A DNA stretch of 52,965 nt, filler included, from Basidioascus undulatus (taxonomy: Eukaryota): assembly GCA_000826855.1 (NCBI GenBank). It is 4 parts of 4 records of this genome, joined end to end, with 100 filler letters (N's around TTAATTAATTAA, not from the genome) between each part and the next. Parts side by side here need not be neighbours in the genome. Positions count along the whole stretch, not along the records: positions 13,263 to 26,448 come from JTLS01000835.1; 3 more parts are not named here. One strand, given 5' to 3'. Within the stretch, counting starts at the first letter, position 1; the number at the start of each line of letters is the position of its first letter. This document shows positions 13,163 through 39,810 of this stretch, one piece after another. The position numbers and the translations under genes are program-made. The notes below the pieces were generated by a model. It was given only the letters and a program-made list of their open reading frames with translations, was not told the origin of the DNA and did not search any database.

Positions 13163-13262
13163 NNNNNNNNNNNNNNNNNNNNNNNNNNNNNNNNNNNNNN
13201 NNNNNNTTAATTAATTAANNNNNNNNNNNNNNNNNNNNNNNNNNNNNNNNNNNNNNNNNNNN
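13163..13262. other. Artificial contig-joining linker (N44-TTAATTAATTAA-N44)
   Basis: N runs flank a 12-mer that gives stops in all six frames; the same linker occurs three times in the window. Confidence 0.97.
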
Positions 13263-13264
13263 TC

Positions 13265-13333
13265 TAGTTGAAAAAGTGGGAGTTGACTCCTTGAAATCAG
13301 AATCCAATGTACTAACCGTTATACTATCCAACC
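13265..13333 (-). tRNA. Degenerate tRNA-Gln(CTG) gene or pseudogene
   Basis: Minus strand: acceptor GGTTGGA/TTCAACT, D-arm GTAT-AACGGTTA-GTAC, anticodon arm TTGGA-TTCTGAT-TTCAA. The variable/T-arm region is aberrant (GGAGTCAACTCCCAC, no GTTCGA). Confidence 0.6.
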
Positions 13334-14091
13334 TGTTAGTGTGACAAAGGCAATGTATTTTATCAAAAGCACTGCTTCAGCGGACTTCGCCCCACCTCAA
13401 AAGTCTCGCTATCAGCCCAGGACTACGAGTGTATAAACCTACTGCAACATGGGTCGAACTTGGTAATATGCCGCTAGGAAACTTTGCCACACGTCCGCTG
13501 CACTCGTTCCCTCCTGGTTTAGCACTCGTTCACCCGCGTTGATGGTCTTGATTCTTCACAACACACAGATTATTTGCTCTACACTGTGTTGAACACTCAC
13601 TCCACCGCTTAACCAACCGACCCTGCACAAGCAATTTTGAATGTTGGTGTATGGCCTCAGCGCCAACTACATGAAATGACGGATAACCGGCCTGGTGATA
13701 GCAGTCGTACAGAGGCAGATTATCGGTAGACAAAAATGTAGTGCCGATTTTCCATCATACCAGAAGCTACAGGAAGTAAGAGGTCAGAGGCACGATTCGG
13801 GGAGATAGATCGCGCTCGTGGTTGTCTTTAAAACGAGTGAAAAAAATCAAGAGGGATCCAATCCTTCTTCCTTTTATGAATTGTCTTACGTGTGCAGTCA
13901 GAGTTGAGCAGGGCCTTATTGGAGTCCACATGTCCTTCGCAAGCGACCGCTCCCCGCAGAACCGCAAAACAGCCTGGTGGACGCCATTACCACACATTTG
14001 TACAGTCATTCAGAAAAATAAATATGCAGAAGTGTCCCATATCCGTCCCCCAAATCCGTCCTGCGAGTCCGAGCATCCACCCTCCATTTAA

Positions 14092-14544
14092 CTCATCGCT
14101 GCGATGACGGCAACGCACGCCGCTATCAGAACTGGAAAGGGCTCAGGCCGCGGTCAGCAAAGCTTCAGGCTCGGTACTCCATGAGCTTGGAATGAATCGT
14201 ACCTCCAGTCCGAATATTCCGGAGTCCTCCGTTCGGCACCCCCGAGTCGCACCCACTCCCCAATGTCCTCGTGCCACTCTTCGGGCGAGTACAACTCGCA
14301 GTACTCGTAGTTGCCCTTCCATACAGCTGTAGCGAATCGGACGCGAGGTCGGAGCTGCGGTGACGGTGACAGTGACATTACCGTTGTTCTGGGCCTGGGC
14401 AACGAAGGCGAAGAAAGGTGACGCAGATTGGGATGCATTCTGAATCCGGTGCATTGCCCCTTCGCCAAAACTGTACCGTGCCTGAACAAGGGGAAAGTCG
14501 GCATTCAATTGATTCTGAAGCTGGACTTGAGCTGGACTCTCCAT
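14092..14544 (-). CDS. Small hypothetical protein, probably spliced
   Basis: Starts MESPAQVQLQNQLNADFPLVQARYSFGEG. A plausible ~55-nt GTAATG..TACAG intron joins it to AVWKGNYEYCELYSPEEWHEDIGEW. The 3' end is uncertain. Confidence 0.35.
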
Positions 14545-14810
14545 CGTCCCATTCGAGGTAGAGATTTGTGATGGAAGGCAATTGGTCGGACCGATGGGAC
14601 ACTGCACAGCTTCGCGCAAGAGCGTTTTGGTTCTCACTGCTGAGTCGTGTGCAAAATGGTGCGTCGTCTGACCTGTCTCGCACGTTGCGTCGCCTCAGGC
14701 CTCGGACCTGTAAGCGATTGCGGGTTGAAGGATCGCAGAAGCGAATGAGTGGAGCCACCGCATCAGCAGTGGGGGATACAGTCGCACTCAGTCGGTCAAC
14801 GGCATAGCGT

Positions 14811-16510
14811 TCATCGTTCAACCTTCTCACGGACACATCCTCCGGGCAGGAGGTAGTACAATCGCTCGGAGTTCTCGATGAGATATTTTGGAAGCCCCAC
14901 AGCGGATTTCGATCTGGAGAGGATGGTGAGAAAACGCGTACACGTCCTTCGGAGAAGCCTGCACGTCACGTACGGCTCCAGGTCCATCAAGGAGAGCATG
15001 TCCTTCCACTGTTCGAGAAGTGTCAGTACGCGCAACCTGCTATACGAGAGTAGCTTGCGCACCGTGTATGCTTCAGGCAGCATGTTGAATGGGCTAACAC
15101 GGCACACGGCGTGTCAGCCAGCTTCTGTTACTACGCGAGCGGGCAGGGGACGACTCACTCTTTGCCAGTGCACACCGTCTCCTGTATGCGATGCGGATTC
15201 AATAACGATTTGTCCCCGCCGATGCGGTCGGCGTGCGAGTAACCTGCGGAGACTGATCAGCGCCGTCGTCCTTCAGTGCAAGTCCTTCGCGAAAAGTCAA
15301 TACCCTTCATCTTCGTCACGAACTCCTCGATAGTCCTGAAGCAGAAACTGGAATGCCACTTCAGGATGAGAATCGCGGTAGTTGTTGTAGCGGAAAAGAA
15401 AGCTCACCTGCAATGCCAACCCGCATCCGCCAACGCCGACGCACGCGCCCCCTTCCTCTTCGAATGCCCATACCACTCTCCCGCACCCCACTCCTGCACG
15501 GCCGCCCTCCAGCTTCCACCTCGCAGCTGCCACTCGAACGAATAAAGGAAGTTTCGAAGGTCGAGGTGCATCCTCCGACCCCAGCCTTCGCAGCCCTTCA
15601 GCAGACGAATGCTGTGGGCCGAAGGGATCTCGTCGACGTCGGCCATGATCACGAGCGTGCCCTGCCCCGCCCCGTGCTCGTTCAGAAGCCGAGTCATCGC
15701 CCTGCGATGCTCGGCCTCGTAGTCGAAAGGCGGTGTCCCCGGCGCGGGAGGGGGTAAGACGATGTGCACGAGCTTGTGCTGAAAACGAGCGAATCGAGGC
15801 TCCTGCGCGTGGAGCAAGAACTCGGCCGGTTTGGGGAGGCCCGTGAACGTCGAGTTGGACTGTCATTTGACGACGAAGGACCCTACACGTCAATCGTTCA
15901 CTCCGAAAGTTACGTGCCTTGAGAGTTGAGGAATGCTGACCTCGACGAGGAAGAACTTGTCTACGACAGGATCAAGCTGTTGATAATATGTTGAGCGCTG
16001 AGTGGCATGGAACGCCTCTGCTGAGGGCCGGCAAGGTGTGATGCCACTCACCTCGTTCCAGCGAAGCTCGAGCAAGTCCAGCTCTGTGCTGCAGATCTTT
16101 CAATGGTCAATGCAATGTTTCTTTTACTGAACACGATCAAGATGCGGACGCACCTGAACAGGACACCGTCGAAGAGCTGGGGCTGTGTTCGTCGCAGCTG
16201 CCAGCCATGTAGCTGGCACAGGTGCTCTGATACCGATAGCCCGTCCGCCCAGAAGTGCGGTAACACGACGTCCGGGCCCTCAGGAGTATCCCATAGCGGG
16301 CGAGTAGCGTAGCTCACTGCAGCGAACCTCCCATCATTAGTGGACGTCCTCCCCCTGAGCTGAGGGAAGGCGGAACGAATGAAGACGGAACGGCGTACGC
16401 GTGTTTTGCAGCTGATAACGAAAGGGTAGAGCTACCAGAATAAGAAATGATAATACGGTAGCCGTTGCAAGCGCTCCCTTCTGACGCCGGTTCAGCTGCG
16501 TGAGCTTCAT
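14811..16510 (-). CDS. Glycosyltransferase family 17 (MGAT3/GnT-III-like), multi-exon type II membrane protein
   Basis: N-terminal TM; SYATRPLWD; FDGVLF(S)TELDLLELRWNELDPVVDKFFLVESNSTFTG; DxD motif MADVDEIP; LYSFEW; ADAGWHCSFCFRTIEEFVTKMK; NMLPEAY; LLPGGC. Confidence 0.88.
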
Positions 16511-17015
16511 CGCGGTGATGGGGAAGGTAGGGAGCACCGCCGATGACCATCACGCAGGAGTCGTTCTTGGTCGTCCACGCGCGTTCGCGCGCAGTTATCT
16601 CGACAGCGCAGTACGCCGAGTAGTACATATGGGAGCAAGTACTTGGAAGAGGGTCTGACAGTGAGGAGCCGCCGCTTCGCATAATAAGCTCGGCAAACGT
16701 ACTACTCACATACATACGGCCACGTGGCGGCGGCATTGCGGCGGCATTGCGGGGTGTCAAGCACATCATCCTCTTACACTCCATGCTACGGCTTTTGAAT
16801 GGTAGATTTGGGTTGCAGTTGGGATCCTAGTCAAACAATAGAACTGAGGACTGGCAGCGACATTGCAAGCAAGTCTAAGTTTGTCAAAGCCCGGCCGTGT
16901 TCGTGTTCGGTCAAGCGAGTGAAGATCTCATCCGCACGACATGCAAGAACAAGGTATAGATGCAGTACACAAACGGACAACATCTCAACCACCACAAGAC
17001 CCTAAAGAAAGAAGT

Positions 17016-20000
17016 TCAAGAAATCGCCATGGCCGCTGGCCGATCTGGCCCGCCGTTCGTTGCGGCGGCAGTGCCATTGATTGCCGGTCCCGAGGCTACG
17101 CCCCCGTTGGTCGGTCCCGCCAGCTTGCCCCCGAGCCAGCGTTGAAAATCGTCCATGCTCACGTGAAGAAGGTGAACCGTCCTTGTCTCCTCTGATAATG
17201 GATTAGAGTACGTATCGTCAGGTTCAGCACGTACGTAAGGAAAGCTCCGGCGACGCTACAGACACACCCGAGCGGACAAGGCGCCCGTACGTCTTGCCCT
17301 TCTTCTCGCTCTCAAAGTGGTCGTGATCCCGCGGGAGGAGGACATAGGATGTCTGGCAGGCGCAGAAGCGGTTAGTGCATGCGGGTACGCGCTCAAAGCT
17401 GATATGAAAAACGTACGTCGTAATACCAATCACGGTGGACCTTCGGCACCCGCGGCACGTCATTGACGCCGGTGACCTGCAAGACGGCCTTAACGCGAGT
17501 CTTCACGCGCTCGCTGCGCGCCTCGATGAGCTTCGTGATCGCCGTACAGCCGGTGCCGAAGCCGACGAGGATGATGCGGGTGTCCAGCTCCATCAAGCTA
17601 AACGCACAGGTCAAGGTCAGTCGGGATACGCCGTGCTCTCCGAGGGCGAGCTGCAACAGACGTACTCGATATAATTATCCCAAAGCGTCTGGACGAGATG
17701 CTTGAGAGGGTCGAGCGTCTCCTTCCCCGGCTTCACGGCTCGCGTCTTGGCCGCGAAGTTGATCAGGACGTTGACGTCCATTAGCCCCCAGTCGTTTCCG
17801 CGGACCCAGTCGACGATCTTGCGGCTAGAGTCGATCTATGCGAAGGATGGCGGTGTATAAGTGAGAAGCAGCACTTGCGGACGTTCCCGAAAGGTGCGCA
17901 CCAAGAACGATCGCTCCATGTTCACGTCGTAGTCCGCCGCAGTCCGAGACTCGACGAGGAGATTGCCGCTGCGCACGGGTCAGCAGATGGCAAGCCCGAA
18001 ACCGAGAGCCACGACATACAAGTCGTGTACGAAAAATACCAAAGTTTTGACATCGTAGATGTCAGACCTGTCGAATCTCGGATGAGCGACAGCCGAAGGG
18101 CGGTGCTGTCAGTCTGTTCGAAGAATGCGACGTACGTGCAGAACACTTGCCGGCCGAAACGATTCCGAAGCTCCTCTGCGACGAGAGGAACTTCGAACAT
18201 GTCGTACTGGTCGCACAGGAAGCGCGTCCGATGGTCCTTGAGCACCTCTGGACCGTTTCCCTCTCCACCTATGAGCAGTTGATTAAGGATACCCATCGAG
18301 CAGTGACGACGCACGGCTGACGGAGGTAACGCCGGCCGTAGTAAGAGCTGCGCGCAGGAACCGGTCAGTATCGCGAAGGAACGCGCGACTTTCAATATGA
18401 CACTCACTTTCCACGGGCTCGTTGGCCCTGGGCGTGATGCTCTTCCAGTACGCGCTCTGAGTGAGTGCAACCTGTTGGGGCGGACGACGACATCAGCGAG
18501 ATTTCAGCGCAGGCTCGGATGCAGCGAACATCACCTGTTGAATCGTCGTCGACGCCAGCTCAGTCGCCTCGAGTGGTGCGCTGAACGGCGGCGGAGCTTC
18601 GCCGAGGAGGACCTTCGTGACAGCGAGTGCTGACGTCGAGATCGCCTCGAGGTTGTACCCGCCCTGCATGTGAAAGCGAGATAGGCGGTCCGCTTCAGTC
18701 GTGAAAGAACGCCGGATGGTTGCAAGCAACATACCTCAAGCGCCACGACCAACTTGCCGTCCGCGAGCCCCGAAAGCATATGCGTCATGTGCGCGAACCC
18801 GGCGGGCGAGACATGGTTCTCGCCGAGGTGGTCGCCCTCCGCCGCGTCGAACCCGGCGGAAACTGAAGCGCGTTGAAAGTTCAGTGTGAGGTCGGCGAGG
18901 AGAAATAGCGCGCAACACTTACTGATGATCAGATCAGGCGAAAACTCATACGCGATGGGCATGATGATCTTGTGGAAAGCTTGGATGTAGTCGGCGTCGC
19001 CCATGCCCTTCACAGGCCACGGGACGTTGACGGACCTGCCTCTCCTCTGTCAGCGCTGATTGTGTAGAGAGGAGATGGGGCAAGAGAAAAAATCGCGCAC
19101 GTTCCCTCCGCACCCGGCGCGCCCACCATGTCCATCCCGCCGAAGTTCGTGCTCGGGTAGAACGTCCCGCCCTCATAGCGGTGGATCGAAACGTAGAGAA
19201 CGTTCGGGTCGTCGTAGAATGCTCTTTGCGTCCCATTGCCTGCCAGCGGCATTTCACGTCAGTCACCAATATGCGGGGAAATGCGGAAGAGGGCGACCAA
19301 CCGTGATGAACGTCCCTGCCAGTCGAAAGGCTGGTCAGCTCCCGCGTGCTCAAGTAAGTCGTTTCCGGAAACGCGACGCACCAGTCCAGGATCATGACCT
19401 TCTTAATCTGGTTCGGGTAGCTGCGCATCGCCCAGCGCGTCGCGATGCTGACGTTGTTGTAGAAGCAGAATCCGCCGATCTCCTCCGGCTCGGCATGATG
19501 CCCGGGCGGACGGACGATCGCGAACCCGTTGCGGATCTGCCCGTCGATGACGGCTTTGGTCATCTGTACGACGCCGCCCGCGCTGAGCGCCGCGCAGTCG
19601 GGCGTCTTGTTGTTGACGTAGACCGACAGACGCTCGTACAAGGGGTAGTTGGCGCGCAGCTGACTCTCGGGCGTGACTGTTATCGGGGACGCGATCTGGT
19701 CAGCGGGTACCTTCCAGGTTGGCGAGTGAGTAACGAATGGGATTTGCTACGGACACTCAAAGGCGACGACGCTCTCGTAATGAGCCTCGGAGTGTATGAG
19801 CTCGACCTCGGCTTTGAGGATTCTCCTCCCCGTGATCCTCTTCATGTACTTGATACAGCCGCCGTTCTTGAGCGTCTGGAAGATGCACGAAATGCGTTCT
19901 GGCGCTTCTGGATGCGGGCCGTCGTCGTCCTCGATGAGGGACGCGTGGCCCGACATAGCGGGGTCGTAGACGTAGCCCGTGCGAGGTTGCGGCTCGAACG

Positions 20001-20223
20001 GCATAGTCACGAGTCCGTCGTTGAGCGTGTCGACCGCGCTGACAGACGAGGCGCGCGGTACGAGCGCGGCGGAGGCGGCGGCTGGGGAGGTAGTGGCTGT
20101 CGAAAGACCGTTGATAGGCACGACGGCCGCTACGGGCGGACCGACTGGCGTGGCTGGCGCTGCCGCTGGGGCGGCGTCGACTTCCATCGGCTGCCGCGAA
20201 GGTCCCTCCATGGGGTCGTCCAT
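17016..20223 (-). CDS. HDA1: Class II histone deacetylase Hda1/Clr3 with C-terminal Arb2-like domain, multi-exon
   Basis: [98 protein letters not shown]-terminal WGLMDVN and [10 protein letters not shown]. Confidence 0.93.
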
Positions 20224-20707
20224 GTTGCGACTAATAGCGACAGAAGTTAATGAGAGAGCCCAAAGAATGTATAAACTTGATAACCTCACGTGTAGTGTGA
20301 GAGGTTGAAAAAACGTGAAGGAAAACAAAAAGGGCAGCGAGTTTCGAAAGGCGACCGGACTGCCATGGAAGAAGAGTCCGCGAAGGAGGTGTCAGTGGTG
20401 CATCGACTTGAAAAGCGAGAGATGGCGCTGACTAGCTCGAATATGTCAGTATCGACGTTGGATTTCGAGCGTTTGGGATAACAGCGAAAGTCAGTATACA
20501 GAGAGGAGTGACCGTTGGGGAAGGAAGACAACCCGCGACGCGCCTTCATTGTGGTTGTCGCGCTCCGTCCGCGGGGGGGCCCTCGCAGCTCCTCGGAACG
20601 CCCCCTGCTGGGAAATGACCTCACCACCCAGCACCATCTTCTCGTCTTCTCTCCTCTCCATTTGACTGACACCTCTTGTACTTCCATTCTCACATCAGCA
20701 GCACTCC

Positions 20708-21441
20708 ATGTCGTGGCAAAAGACCGTCACCCTCTCCCGGCGTTCCAAAGGGTCCGTATCCCGGCTTCGTGCCTCCTCGTGCAACCCCTCTGCGATGCTC
20801 ACCCTGCAGCTCCTGGGAAGCTGCCACCTGGTGACCGACGAGATTCAACGCGAGATCAAGGATGGTCTGAAGAAGACCAAGATTGGGATCCTGCACCTGT
20901 TCTGCCAGCACACCTCGGTGAGCAGATATGCTCTTAATACCCTCCACCTTCCCGCCGCTTCGGTCCCTCTCGACTCAAACTAAACTGTGACTATCATCAT
21001 CCCAGTGCGCTCTTTCGATTAACGAGAACTTTGACAGCGATGTCCGACGGGACATGGACATGGCTCTCGACCGTATCGTGCCTGAGAGCCTGCCGTGGCG
21101 GCATACAGATGAGGGACCGGACGACTCGTGCGTTTGCTCTATCTCTATTCCAACCCGCATTGGGCACACACATTTAAATGACGTATTATGGGATCATTCT
21201 GGACAGCGTCTCCCACACCAAGTCCAGCATCATCGGCGTTAGCCTCACGATCCCTATCACGAACGGCCAGCTCAACCTCGGGACTTGGCAAGGTCCGTTT
21301 TTCTGTCACCCCTCATCGTTCATCTTCCGTTTTCGTATCGATCACTGAGCTCTCCTTTGCGTGTATGAAAATCCAGGGATCTACCTCACTGAGTTCCGAA
21401 ATGCATCGCACTCGCGCCGAGTGGTAGCCACCATCATGTGA
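20708..21441 (+). CDS. YjbQ/UPF0047 family protein (secondary thiamine-phosphate synthase-like), multi-exon
   Basis: [81 protein letters not shown]. Confidence 0.92.
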
Positions 21442-22169
21442 GTGCCCTGCGTGCGGCACCTTTGTCCTGGACGACCCAGAGCCCGACGAGTTTAGCTTTT
21501 CATTCTCCCGGATATGCAGGCCGTGATGTGGCCTAGCATGGTGAAAAGGGTGTAGAAATGTAGAGGACGTTCTCCGTTTCGCATAGACACGCATAATGCC
21601 CCTTGGCGGTTGGGCTTGCATGCCAAAATCAGCCGATTATGTGAAGAGTGTTTTTTATGAGAGTTCAGCAGCTGATCCAGGACTGCCTCCGTCCTGAGCG
21701 CTTGAAACCTGAGAGTAGTGCGGCCGGCCTGGCCACACTTGGCCACACCTGTATCCTGATGCTTCATGCCATGACAGTTACGAGTCGAAGGATAGACTCT
21801 GAGCTAGTTCTTATGGTCTTATGCGAGCACCCAACCAAAGATTGTGTCGGAGAGGGTAGCTGTGATGTCGCTCGCCGCGGTGGAGCACAATAAGAGGACG
21901 CGGGCGGGGATGCCTTGGCAATCTTTTGGGCAGATCTAGCCTGCTCAATTTCCACAAAAAATGCACTGCGCCTGTTCGGCTCGAACGATAACGATTTCGA
22001 GAAGCAACAAGCGCTTGAAAATGAGATTCTGATCTTCCACTGTGGGGGTTCCGGGGCTGAGCGGACGAGTGTTTGCGAGCGTCTTCGATCAACGCTTGGT
22101 CACTCTTCCTTCCTTCCCTTTTCGGTCTGCTGGCCGGTCGTCTTCTGCTCAAATTGACTTTCGATCGCA

Positions 22170-23509
22170 ATGTCGAATCGGCTCTCGGTGTCGAATCCAC
22201 TCTCGGTGTCTAATCCACTCTCGATGTCGAACCCACTTTCAATCTTCCCCCTGGAAATATGGTCGCGTATCTTCGCTTACGCCGGACACTAGGATCGTAA
22301 CAAGTTGGGTTACAAGAAGGTGATACGCCGGCGGGGGAGGTTGTGCCTTGTTAGCAAAGCTTTAAAAAGGTGCGCTTCTTCCACTTCATTCCCTCTGTAT
22401 AGCAATTGCGACAGGATGCAACGTGAGCTTACCGTAGGTTCCCTGAGCCGGTCGCCGCCAACTTCCTGTATCGGACGGTCATCCTCACTTCGCTTCCCGA
22501 GATCACGGAGCTGCTGAGCACTGTCATTCGACTCGATTTGGCCGGCTTTCATGTCAGGCACTTCGTCCCCGAGCTCTACGTCGGCACGCATCCTGGCACG
22601 GCCATGCTCATCTTGTCTGGTATCCCCCCGGGTGACGAGGCGAAAGCGACGTATAACCTCGATCAATCGCCTTTACCCACGCTCCTCGCAGCCCTTGCGC
22701 GACTTTAGGAGTTCACATCCCCGCTCCCTCAGTTGCGGGGTAAGCTCAACCGTCCCAACTGTCGGATTGTCCACACTTCGAGGGCTTTCCTCGTCTCGGC
22801 GTACGCTGTCTCGCCTAGGTTGCACGCTGGACTCATTGGTCCCTCTGGACCTTGTCGTTCAAATGCTTGGGACATTCGTTGAGTTAAAGAGCCTATCCCT
22901 CGGACGGACCGATTCCGACGACGCCTATCTCAATCCCGGCCCATAGCCTGCTTGGAAACTTTCGATGCCGCAACTTCGCTTACTCAAGTCTAGCATGCCC
23001 CTTCCCGAAGACCTGGCCATTACTACTCATCGTTTCGATACTCAGGACGCTCAGGCCATGCTTCATTTCCTATCCAACCATGCGGTTCAAATTCGAAGCT
23101 TGACGCTCGCTGTCGCGCACCGTCACGCCGGCGGGATGATCCTCGCTACTGTCACACCTCGACAAGCTCATCTTCCGATCTCGTCCCATTGAACCCCCCG
23201 AATTGGGACATGTTCGGCCGTGCTCTCAGAACTGTCACCATGCCCGCCCGCTTTGCAGACCCTGCCGCCCGCAATGTTGTCGGTAACTGGATACGTACCC
23301 TGCTCGCTACCGACCCTCCTGCCCTGCGCGATATACATATGGAGTCGCTCGGAGGATCCGAACCGTTCAGATGGGCTCATATGGAGGAGAGCGAATCTCT
23401 GATGTCGGCTTTCAAGCTCGCGCTTAGCTGCGCGGAGAAGGGCGTTGTCCTCAGAGACAGGGATGGCAATGGGGTGACCTTGTTGGGGTGTGGCGAGGGA
23501 ACTTCTTAA
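22170..23509 (+). pseudogene. F-box/LRR-like pseudogene
   Basis: MSN..LSIFPLEIWSRIFAYAGH*..RLCLVSKALK is F-box-like, followed by LRR-like FVELKSLSLG, MPQLRLL and QIRSLTL. In-frame stops at about 22290, 22944 and 23190. Confidence 0.6.
22171..22242 (+). repeat. Four copies of an imperfect 18-bp coding repeat, (M/V)SN(R/P)LS
   Basis: tgtcgaatcggctctcgg / tgtcgaatccactctcgg / tgtctaatccactctcga / tgtcgaacccactttcaa. Confidence 0.85.
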
Positions 23510-23716
23510 AAATGCATTGGCCTTTTGTTCGTGATCGTCGCTGCGCACAACTCCTACTACGATTCGGTCGTTCTCTACGCCGACTGCGTCCTGCCCGCCT
23601 GACATGGTTTTTCCTAACAGCAGAAATTTCAAAGCTTTTTCTACCGGAATATTTCATTCGTCTATATAAATGGGTCGTGCTGTCAGAAAACAACAGCGTG
23701 TCGACAACTTTCACAC

Positions 23717-24715
23717 TCAAAGCTCCTTGAGCCCCTTCCGAGCCCTTGATCCCAAGCCGCGCCTGTCATAGCTCTTCACTTGATGAACTTCTCCCCACAA
23801 AAACGCCTCGGGAGATCAATATCCTTGACCTGCAAAGCCGAGGAATCGTGTTAACATGTGCCATCGATACCGCCTCCTGGCGGGCCAGACGAATCTGGAT
23901 CGTGATGCGCTTGGCGTGGAGGGCGGCGAGGTTGGTGTCCTGCACCGGGGGACCGCGAACCGGTAAGTCTTTGGAACCCCATTGTTGAGAAATTTGATAA
24001 TGGAGAGACGCACTCCGAAGAGATGGATGAGGTAGTTCTCGGACGCTTCCTGGAACGCCATCATGGTGGCAGCCTGGAAGCGGAGATTCGGCTGACGAGA
24101 AGTGATATTCGGATGTGGTTTTGTTGCGCTTTTGATATGCGTGAAGTTCTACCTACCCTGAAGTCTTCGGCGATCTTTCTAACGAGGCGCTGGAACGGGA
24201 GCTTGCGGATGAAGAGCCTGCGAGGTGCGTGCGGGCGGAGGTTGCGCGTGATGAGGAGTGTGATAGACCGAAGAAAAATAAACCAAGAGCGATAAATAGA
24301 AGACGGTGCCGAAGTTTTATGGAGAGGGAGCAGACGGGGCCAGTGGGAGCGGTCAGCGGGGCCGGCTGAATGCGTTCGACGGGAGGAGGACGTACTCGGT
24401 GGAGTGGGATGTCCTCCACAACTACTCCAAGCACATTCCTTCAGGAAACTTGATGACGCACCCCGCAGCGCCACCGTACCGCCAGCGATGCGGCTTCTTG
24501 GCCCCACCCGTGTCGCTGCTGCCGGAGAGGCGCTTCCCGCCCTTGCCCTTCCAACCCCTCGTCTCCTGCAAAGCAGCCAACAGAACAGAATAAGATTACC
24601 TACCTGGTCTGGAACTCACGCTTCCCAAATTGACCTTTGCCCCCTTCGTCTCCAGCTGCTTCCTCGGGGCCTTTCCCCCGGTTGACTTGCGTGCGGTCTG
24701 CTTCGTACGCGCCAT
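23717..24715 (-). pseudogene. Divergent histone H3-like gene, apparently inactivated
   Basis: Spliced reconstruction: [60 protein letters not shown]-fs-GTVALR|..STE|LFIRKLPFQRLVRKIAEDFR|PNLRFQAATMMAFQEASENYLIHLFG|DTNLAALHAKRITIQ|VKDIDLPRRFCGEK. There is a frameshift near 24480, EIRRYQK is largely deleted, and the last donor reads AT instead of GT (23893-23894). Confidence 0.88.
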
Positions 24716-26448
24716 GCTGGTATGTCCTGCACTGTTGGGAGGGGAAGGGGAAAGGGACTTTAGGTAAGGACTCGATGAGCCTTTTGGATGCTGTAGGCCG
24801 GTGGTGGTAGAAGGTCATGTGCCGGGTCCGGGCGTCCACATCGTGCCTCCAGGTGGGGTGGTCGGATGCACCGCCCGCCCGCCCGCGACGACGATCGCAC
24901 ACTCTTCGCGTTTCAGGGGAAGTCCCAGCCTTTACCTAGAAAATATTCACAAATTACTTGTAGCTTAGTCCCACCATGTACCGATTAAATCGATTGTTCC
25001 CTGCAGGACGAGGTGTGCAACGCATGTATGCCGCTGTAGACGTGATGCTGAGGCCCGACTTTCACCAGAGATGTGACCTCTTGAGCACCGTTCCCGTATG
25101 GACAATCTTACACAAGTACATATATAGCTCAGAAGAGCATGTGTGAGCTTTTACACTTTATCCACGGCGTCAAGCAGGATTTCCCGCCAGTCCTGTTCGA
25201 CAGCCACATCTACCGGAGGGGCGAGTACCTGCTGCCTGCTGAGGCAGGGCATTATGTGCAACCGCTATGGAATACCCTTTTTACAGGAATTAATGCTCCA
25301 CTATTATAAATGGGCCACTTACCCTATGGGCCACTTACCGTATCCGTCACTTTAAGAGAGCTTCCCAAGCTTCTTGCCCCTTGAAAGTGCAGTCGCTCTG
25401 TTCGTTGGTCATCCACGAAGCCCTTCGCTTCAATCCTCTCCCATCAATTTTTGGTATCTCAACGCTGGATTTAGAGTGCCTGCAAACTGCTGCTCTTCCC
25501 CGCCGCTATGGAATGGTTACCCGCCGCATGCTGTAACGACCCTAGAGCATGACGCTGTCGAATATGATTCGTTTGAATGTCGGAGGATGTTTATTAGCTA
25601 ATCAAGCTCCCCAGGAATCATAGTAAAACAATGTCTGTTCAGTTGATGTTCTTTTGACCGGCTGTTCTTTGGGATCAAAGGTTCGCATGCACGCGTCTGC
25701 GCCACTAGGTCTCATTGCGTTGAACCCCGCTCGTGCACGTCTCAAGCCCGAGGCACCTTGTACTCGGTGCATGAGCGGGGAAATAAAGTTTTGTCACCTA
25801 GAAAATCAGAAAGATCTGTTTCATTTGCAAGAGGCAGAGTTATTCCCTACAACGATGGACCGCACGCCTTCATTCGGGACCGTCTGGTGTCGGGCGTTCT
25901 GGTCAGCTCAAACCCCATAAGACACCATTCCTAGCCACACGAGGCATCCAGACACTGCATGCAGTGACTGGGAAGGACAAGAAAATCATCCGGGGGAAGG
26001 AGATCGGAAAAGTCGCTCGTGGGGGTACGCGTCTGCCAGGCAGCCTCCATGCAAGAGCGCGAGAGTCAACGATGGTGGTTATAGGTAGTCTCTTCTGAAG
26101 CGGGGAAGTTTGAAAATTTCCAAGTATCACGCTCCAGTTTCAAGTTTATGGTTAGGGAGGCCCCAGGATGCGGGGAAGCCCGAGACGTCAAGAAAGAGTG
26201 TGAGAGAGAGCACCAATTCTGTCGCTGCGCGGCAGCCTTCAACAATTGCCAGCTCGCACGCACGCACACCGTCAACCTCAGCAACACCCTGCAAATCCTC
26301 ACAAGCGAACTTCCTTTCATCAGGGGACTCCTTCATCCAAGTCCCTTCACCATCGTCCTCTTCTCCCTCTCCCCTCAACCCCACCTTCTTCCTCTCGCCT
26401 CTCCCTCCCGCCTCCCCTCCTCTCCCCTCCTTCTTTCCATCCCCCCCC

Positions 26449-26548
26449 NNNNNNNNNNNNNNNNNNNNNNNNNNNNNNNNNNNNNNNNNNNNTTAATTAA
26501 TTAANNNNNNNNNNNNNNNNNNNNNNNNNNNNNNNNNNNNNNNNNNNN
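26449..26548. other. Artificial contig-joining linker
   Basis: N-TTAATTAATTAA-N. Confidence 0.97.
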
Positions 26549-39710: not shown

Positions 39711-39810
39711 NNNNNNNNNNNNNNNNNNNNNNNNNNNNNNNNNNNNNNNNNNNNTTAATTAATTAANNNNNNNNNNNNNNNNNNNNNNNNNNNNNNNNNN
39801 NNNNNNNNNN
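39711..39810. other. Artificial contig-joining linker
   Basis: N-TTAATTAATTAA-N. Confidence 0.97.

Follow-up and report, generated by a model that had tools for sequence, protein, structure and literature searches.

The window, a 52,965-nt stretch of Basidioascus undulatus DNA (filler included), consists of four contigs with N/TTAATTAATTAA linkers between them, and the second of these (13263-26448, from JTLS01000835.1) carries an H3-derived minus-strand gene between 23.75 and 24.79 kb, the ATG being at 24715. An H3-like gene at this place agrees with the initial annotation, an account of this DNA made from the sequence alone. In tblastn searches with H3 units cut from database proteins, H3 order is kept from 24715 to 23788 (E ∼1e-14; 6e-15 to 1e-14 against the 1.3-kb locus), a likeness to H3 far beyond chance, and all H3 segments are recognisable and in the correct order except residues 50-56. 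The H3-like copy is solitary: further histone genes, including an H4 partner, are absent from the window. The neighbour of the locus is a piece of a fungal-type FAS, for which a protein atlas gave bacterial clusters only; this FAS, the gene structure, and the yeast-like H3 residues are what point to a fungal, probably basidiomycete, origin.

Residues 1-20 are identical to canonical H3 (20/20), with K4, K9, K14, and K18 retained, and are followed by diverged residues 21-31 (4/11 identical), in which ARKS/K27 is gone; both features had been read correctly from the start. TGGAKKPHRW matches H3 at 8 of 10 positions and GTVALR at 6 of 6. Further on, LFIRKLPFQRLVRKIAEDFR corresponds to H3 residues 59-79 (16/20 identical, with K79R), PNLRFQAATMMAFQEASENYLIHLFG to residues 80-105 (15/26, ungapped), DTNLAALHAKRITIQ to residues 106-120 (11/15 against animal and plant H3 units, 13/15 against yeast H3), and the C-terminal piece VKDIDLPRRFCGEKF to residues 121-135 (8/15). 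The first three of these fold pieces, K79R included, had already been recognised and are indeed ungapped relative to H3, and residues 53-105 as a whole align to it gap-free. Searched against PDB with phmmer, exons 3, 4, and 5 gave E-values of 2.4e-5, 0.0019, and 0.0093, all matches listed being H3; the best matches of the pieces were H3.2, H3.3, and yeast H3, the last (1id3) being the best for exon 5. For PF00125, single-frame unspliced pieces, the only ones scored, reached 16.8 and 22.0 bits against a gathering cut-off of 26.4.

The locus is of the H3 type and not CenH3, as the initial annotation had held. It resembles CenH3/CENP-A/Cse4 in being a divergent single-copy H3-fold paralog. In CenH3, however, loop 1 is longer and the tail bears no relation to that of H3, whereas the present copy has a canonical tail, a loop 1 that is not longer, and a gap-free alignment with H3 over residues 60-105. 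Of the rows listed by four PDB searches (240), just two name a centromeric protein, both being H3/CENP-A fusion constructs matched via their H3 part.

Transcription and splicing

The three sequencing runs that contain this stretch, none on record as RNA, were compared with positions 23300-25100, namely X1 (DNA, 2014), X2 (DNA, 2025), and X3, from the same sample as X2. In X1 and in X2, a single contig covers all 1801 nt with 0 differing letters and 0 gaps, although either may be the source of the window and their independence is incomplete. X3 yielded 10 pieces, all at least 99% alike to the window, with five joints, all GT..AG on the minus strand; the same joints number 0 in the DNA runs. Because the GT..AG joints occur in X3 only, we read this run, which is on record as ‘DNA?’, as cDNA-like.

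The joints define four introns, A (with two acceptors), B, C, and D, in a transcript spanning at least 24794 to 23748 on the minus strand, to which all coordinates below refer. The 5′ UTR covers at least 24716..24794 (X3 record 18 spans 24603-24794) and is free of AUGs: in the rebuilt mRNA, the earliest ATG is the H3 start itself, at mRNA position 79 (24715). The coding part of exon 1 (24604..24715, joint at 24603) comprises the exact residues 1-20, the diverged residues 21-31, and VSSRP, which is coded by sequence that the initial annotation had assigned to an intron. Intron A (24542..24603) has the donor GTAGGT at 24603 and an acceptor AG ending at 24548 (56 nt) or 24542 (62 nt); its joints run from 24604 to 24547 or 24541, at depths of 4.8 and 2.0.

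Exon 2 (24396..24547) is scrambled. It holds TGGAKKPHRW (24511..24482) in one frame, a lone C at 24481, GTVALR (24480..24463) in the +1 frame, the TGA (24443..24441) that closes ORF1, the reading frame opened by the first AUG, a TAG (24424..24422) in the KKPHR/STE frame, and STE (24403..24396), completed by the G at 24217. Intron B (24218..24395; 178 nt, GTACGT..CAG; joint 24216 to 24395, shorter side 60) leads to exon 3 (24157..24217), which encodes (E)LFIRKLPFQRLVRKIAEDFR; intron C (24092..24156; 65 nt, GTAGGT..CAG; joint 24091 to 24157, side 29) leads to exon 4 (24014..24091) with PNLRFQAATMMAFQEASENYLIHLFG; and intron D (23940..24013; 74 nt, GTGCGT..CAG; joint 23938 to 24013, side 80) leads to exon 5, which starts with DTNLAALHAKRITIQ (23895..23939). 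These three exons are identified by both tblastn and PDB matches, and introns B, C, and D sit exactly where the H3 frame demands. Exon 5 continues through 65 nt of ATTCGT..TTTGCAG (23830..23894), retained in X3, into a remnant of the H3 C-terminus, VKDIDLPRRFCGEKFIK plus TGA (23776..23829; tblastn HSPs 23826..23788 and 23826..23761), whose frame is unreachable for a transcript coming from exon 5.

Support on the shorter side of the joint is 27 letters for intron A and 29 for intron C, weaker than for B and D, and the intron A joints carry the label ‘between: not known’. The contigs that carry the joints are all identical to the window. An intron A-retaining contig exists (X3 record 17, 24520-24601). 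X3 record 16 is continuous from 24395 to 24543 and record 14 from 23748 to 23938, and these intervals therefore contain no further introns. X3 cover is missing in places (e.g. 23422-23726, 24276-24336, and beyond 24825), and the evidence is drawn from the covered parts.

The tail extension

The initial annotation described a tail in which 8 residues are replaced by 26, with TGGAKKPHR resuming after removal of a GTGAGT..GCAG intron (24619..24566, 54 nt). Removing that segment does place tail, insert, and TGGAKKPHR in one frame, which favours a genuine long-tailed histone; this intron, however, is not among the five X3 joints. The observed donor, GTAGGT, lies 16 nt downstream of the proposed GTGAGT, and the two observed acceptors, both AAG|GGC, lie 18 and 24 nt downstream of the proposed GCAG. 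X3 contigs lose rare isoforms, and a minor GTGAGT..GCAG form may exist, though TAG closes that form too: the model stops after 80 codons, with GTVALR and the C-terminus in other frames. The longer tail as a feature of a protein accordingly loses its basis, the splice it needs being unseen in X3.

The tail is better described as 11 colinear diverged residues plus an extra segment than as an 8-to-26 residue replacement. Direct-repeat search (family D1) and global alignment point to a partial tandem duplication with 87-nt spacing across 24479..24656, in which tail codons 20-32 and some intron-like sequence (24656..24566) correspond to the ‘insert’ plus TGGAKKPHRW (24569..24479). In the global alignment, 29 of the first ∼39 nt are identical, and at the protein level ETKGAK... 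recurs as ETRGWKGK.... The alignment score was met by 0.0005 of 2000 composition-preserving shuffles, a post-hoc test applied to the best repeat. At least the first half of the 18 extra codons appears to derive from tail codons 20-32 by tandem duplication and later divergence. Intron A, as observed in X3, falls within the duplicated segment and has weak-looking acceptors, and the ‘insert’ would reflect an accidental mutation with cryptic splicing in its wake and not a tail lengthened by design. Derivation of the G/K-rich insert from an H4-like or H2A-like sequence was also considered and dismissed, the PDB matches all being H3, through KKPHR.

Loss of the reading frame

H3 homology is distributed over three frames in tblastn. 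Frame one contains residues 1-41 (window 24715..24464, with read-through) and again 82-105; frame two contains GTVALR, residues 60-79, and again 123-135; frame three contains residues 106-120. At least four frame-disrupting lesions were found, identical in X1, X2, X3, and the window, and since the contigs of the three runs agree base for base, the frame breaks are not assembly errors. The first is the partial tandem duplication of the tail, with cryptic-looking splicing within it. The second is a gap between KKPHRW and GTVALR of 4 nt versus 9 in H3 (5 nt missing), which places GTVALR in the +1 frame. The third lies between GTVALR and STE, which are ∼59 nt apart versus 21 in H3 (∼38 extra), with stops in the relevant frames. 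A GTGCGT..TAG intron after GTVALR was dismissed as a remedy, X3 record 16 being unbroken there and the frame still unrestored.

The fourth lesion follows TIQ, where the retained 65 nt of ATTCGT..TTTGCAG shift the C-terminus out of frame. Because homology resumes directly behind 23830, in another frame, this stretch is probably a former intron whose donor GT is now AT. A 41-nt intron, GTATCG..TTTGCAG, which would rescue the C-terminus, was dismissed, since X3 record 14 is unbroken at this point. The retained stretch also yields an in-frame IRLAR that resembles the H3 C-terminus; we take the resemblance for chance, a better match, KDIDLPRRFCGEK, lying behind it.

From their first AUG, the X3-derived mRNAs read 72 codons (with the 56-nt intron A) or 70 (with the 62-nt form), and H3 is lost after residue 37. 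In exon 2, the frame of ORF1 differs from those of KKPHR and GTVALR alike and is closed by the TGA named above. Exons 3-5 are mutually in frame, lie behind the exon 2 TAG, and have no AUG ahead of MMAFQ. No splice form, observed or proposed, links the H3 start codon to the histone fold, and no single ORF runs from the tail through alpha-N, alpha-1/L1/alpha-2/L2, and alpha-3. Among the residues expected of a functional H3, ARKS with K27 is replaced (positions 24-28 read GAKVN) and K79 is R, while K36 and K37 are encoded in the DNA, yet are out of frame in X3-derived mRNA. The H3-like copy is unable to encode a histone. That the copy is dead had been suspected from the start, with fewer lesions noted than the frames and stops described here.

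We consider it probable, with good confidence, that the locus is a transcribed, unprocessed (intron-bearing) duplicate of a fungal H3 gene, inactivated by several indels and a splice-site change. The copy retains introns (four are spliced), and short contigs 80-95% alike elsewhere in the genome are the counterpart expected of parent genes. What had been proposed as a new tail variant is most likely a gene duplicate dying in the ordinary way. Its RNA would have no histone function and, since the ORF1 stop precedes the exon 2/3 junction by 45 nt and is followed by three junctions and >370 nt of RNA, is probably a substrate of nonsense-mediated decay. Counter to the pseudogene reading, the copy still has a favourable start context, its four introns work, and its RNA is detectable.

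In another reading, the RNA is itself the product, a non-coding or decay-coupled H3-derived transcript that would act on histone mRNA or chromatin regulation by competing, for example, for histone mRNA regulators. Transcription and the accurate splicing of four introns, in a gene that nevertheless has no histone ORF, are what such a role would call for. The RNA has no known conserved structure or relative, however, its identity to canonical H3 DNA reaches at least 80% on three stretches of 33-47 nt only, and young pseudogenes are commonly transcribed with no need of function. We regard a regulatory RNA as a remote prospect, the least probable of the explanations considered.

Search for relatives

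In the other contigs of X1 and X2, we found five short pieces each, 80-95% alike, on the three coding regions that are most conserved: 24669-24715 (6 of 47 letters different versus a canonical-like contig), 24185-24219 (2 of 32-33), and 23895-23930 (3-4 of 36). We take these pieces, from their likeness over conserved coding stretches, to be canonical H3 genes, that is, parent copies. Over the insert or the divergent fold, no other sequence in X1 or X2 reaches 80% likeness, the matches being limited to the 33-47-nt canonical H3 pieces.

Protein searches were word-based and covered 5.8 billion clusters of annotated proteins, a scope to which unannotated fungal genomes are invisible, and absence is therefore weakly shown. 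Among cluster representatives, an intact relative ∼65-70% identical to H3 would be hidden in H3's own 50% cluster. Within the scope of the word-based searches, the insert plus KKPHR (40 aa, against longer proteins) drew 38 candidates, none with E ≤ 10, and exon 4 drew zero candidates with three shared 5-residue words. The tail ORF query (40 aa) gave E ≤ 0.01 for 7337 of 8000 scored candidates; the best 120 of these are for the most part H3 models in multiple copies or fusions, each covers at most 70% of the query, and relatives do not stand out among them. Back-translated MAFQEASENY and QRLVRKIAEDFR had 0 matches each in metagenome contigs. The titles and abstracts listed for Basidiomycota H3 variants and for fungal histone H3 pseudogenes likewise describe no fungal H3 copy of this kind.

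The initial annotation had suggested that a functional paralog may exist elsewhere and had tied a variant family to an intact insert-bearing homolog; neither turned up within the searchable data, comprising X1 and X2 (at ≥80%), the protein clusters, and the metagenome contigs. That the locus represents a functional or recently functional H3 variant specific to its lineage, with 18 residues added to the tail and K27 and K79 lost, and intact in another isoform, strain, or paralog, is highly improbable. The perfectly retained tail, the single frame and working splice sites of exons 3-5 despite substitutions in the fold, and reports of non-canonical H3 variants in Basidiomycota (PMC6703697) speak for it. 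Against these stand the agreement of three data sets on the sequence, the missing second copy in X1 and X2 (at ≥80%), the insert, exon 3, and exon 4 signatures with no protein or metagenome match, and the resemblance of the insert to a duplication accident.

Ancestry and gene turnover

At 24219, the X1/X2 contigs with a canonical-like piece (records 5 and 11) have a loose end that reads CTGAC..TAG ahead of the shared exon, and the canonical H3 copy would share its acceptor position with intron B. The canonical contig at 23930 has an intron-like end, ..CGTCAG, 9 nt downstream of the intron D acceptor. From the shared position of intron B and the 9-nt offset at intron D, we infer that the copy descends from an intron-bearing H3 gene, and not simply from that canonical copy.

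The dying-duplicate reading fits the death stage of histone-gene birth-and-death evolution, of which histone pseudogenes are a recognised outcome (PMC13525598). An H3 gene would have been duplicated with its introns and then decayed through indels and a lost donor while transcription and splicing persisted; the copy probably lived for some time as a diverging H3 paralog before it broke. Like other histone pseudogenes, it is a duplicated core histone gene that has diverged and lost its frame by indels while the parents persist. It differs from them in being still transcribed and spliced, in its uneven decay (tail residues 1-20 untouched, the rest at 67%), and in a tandem duplication of the tail with splicing inside it. 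With canonical and replacement H3 (PF00125) of the fungal type, it has in common the segment order, the loop 1 length, and apparently one intron position, but it has no continuous ORF, has ARKS/K27 replaced and K79R, and falls below the Pfam cut-off.

As a pseudogene, the locus is of minor weight, one further case of histone birth-and-death turnover. It would nevertheless be an intron-bearing fungal H3 duplicate caught mid-decay, with a tail duplication, splicing therein, and a lost donor. It also illustrates that a ‘variant histone’ called from DNA alone can hinge on a guessed intron, and it has value for annotation in that gene callers could output a false H3 variant at this locus.

Conservation of the H3 tail

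Decay of the copy has been uneven. The tail is identical to H3 at 20 of 20 residues, against 71 of 106 (67%) in the other aligned pieces (Fisher p = 9e-4, from a single locus and small numbers), and conservation ends abruptly at residue 20/21. The 6 nucleotide differences from the canonical copy in the first 47 coding nt would all be silent, with zero residue changes, if the canonical copy encodes the universal tail. The loose end of the canonical contig continues as APRK, an observation that supports the silent reading. The splice sites and mutual frame of exons 3-5 are preserved as well. Uniform neutral decay is not expected to give an intact tail next to 67% identity elsewhere, which argues that the tail has been, or still is, under selection; selection probably acted on the copy for a while before it broke. 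Present selection is not forced: silent-site differences are normal between histone paralogs (PMC13525598), and those of this copy may predate inactivation.

A continuing constraint on the tail could be accommodated if ORF1 were a functional, fold-less protein of 70/72 residues that mimics the H3 tail or acts as a decoy for readers, writers, and erasers of K4, K9, K14, and K18. Such a protein is predicted from the reading frame, and we consider it quite unlikely. It would consist of H3 residues 1-20, then 17 H3-derived or linker residues, then a non-H3 reading, and its start would be the H3 ATG, which no earlier AUG precedes in the known 5′ end. Non-histone proteins that mimic the H3 N-terminus are documented in human cells (PMC8166343), and like these H3 tail mimics (H3TMs, e.g. 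VRK1) ORF1 would be fold-less and would present an exact H3 N-terminus after Met removal, readable by PHD fingers. Known mimics, however, are parts of functional, conserved proteins, whereas the remainder of ORF1, a prediction with no known homolog, is frame-shifted debris: its C-terminal half reads former H3 codons out of frame and matches no family. Among the best 120 tail matches, none was a relative that has such an ORF, the insert query had no matches, and the early stop followed by three downstream junctions suggests decay. The conservation test and the silent differences, which would favour mimicry, are subject to the limits given above.

A further step, that the locus has been repurposed such that its spliced mRNA yields a free H3-tail decoy with the exact residues 1-20 (K4, R8, K9, S10, K14, and K18) as the sole conserved part, is very unlikely. 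If true, a decoy derived from a dying histone gene would compete for tail readers and modifiers, and selection on the tail would explain the uneven decay. Under the preferred reading of a dying duplicate, the locus still poses the question of whether dying histone genes can pass through, or settle in, a tail-only state like that of histone-tail mimics. A tail likeness of the same kind appears in Pfam, where exon 1 matches the PAF ‘histone like domain’ with E 0.0044, below the cut-off.

Transcript source and intron positions

Although run X3 is filed as 'DNA?', and RNA is on record for none of the runs that contain the stretch, it behaves as a transcriptome: its contigs, examined over positions 23300-25100, skip GT..AG introns, and such skipping is absent when this organism's DNA runs are compared. 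In contigs from the DNA runs X1 and X2 that we took as canonical H3 genes, a loose end at 24219 places an acceptor at the same position as in intron B (24218..24395) of the minus-strand H3-derived gene. They also show an intron-like end at 23930, 9 nt downstream of the acceptor of intron D (23940..24013); H3 genes of this genome may therefore differ in intron positions.

The probable former intron retained in X3 (23830..23894, minus) contains an in-frame reading, IRLARQEA (23871-23894, minus), similar to the IxLARR of the H3 C-terminus. A stronger match to this C-terminus lies 40 nt beyond, in a different frame; we take the likeness of the first as chance, with a small local duplication as a less likely source.

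Genes around the H3-derived gene and make-up of the window

A convergent neighbour lies on the plus strand (22994-23509), and 240 nt separate its end from the final base of the H3-derived transcript that X3 covers; the last ORF of this neighbour (171 residues) has no Pfam match. The H3-derived gene shares its contig and strand with a histone deacetylase gene (PF00850; 18534-20391, minus; pieces at E 2e-23, 5e-16, and 0.002), which lies about 3.4 kb from its 3' end; this closeness is probably a coincidence.

The window comprises four contigs of ∼13.2 kb each, linked by joiners with stops in all frames, as shown by three N-runs around TTAATTAATTAA (13163-13262, 26449-26548, and 39711-39810), and side-by-side position across these linkers carries no information on genome order. 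A fatty acid synthase beta subunit of the fungal type is encoded on the third contig (26828-31467, plus); it has a SAT/FAS_N domain, a Fas1 helical domain (E 2e-83), and a FAS meander domain (E 2e-39).
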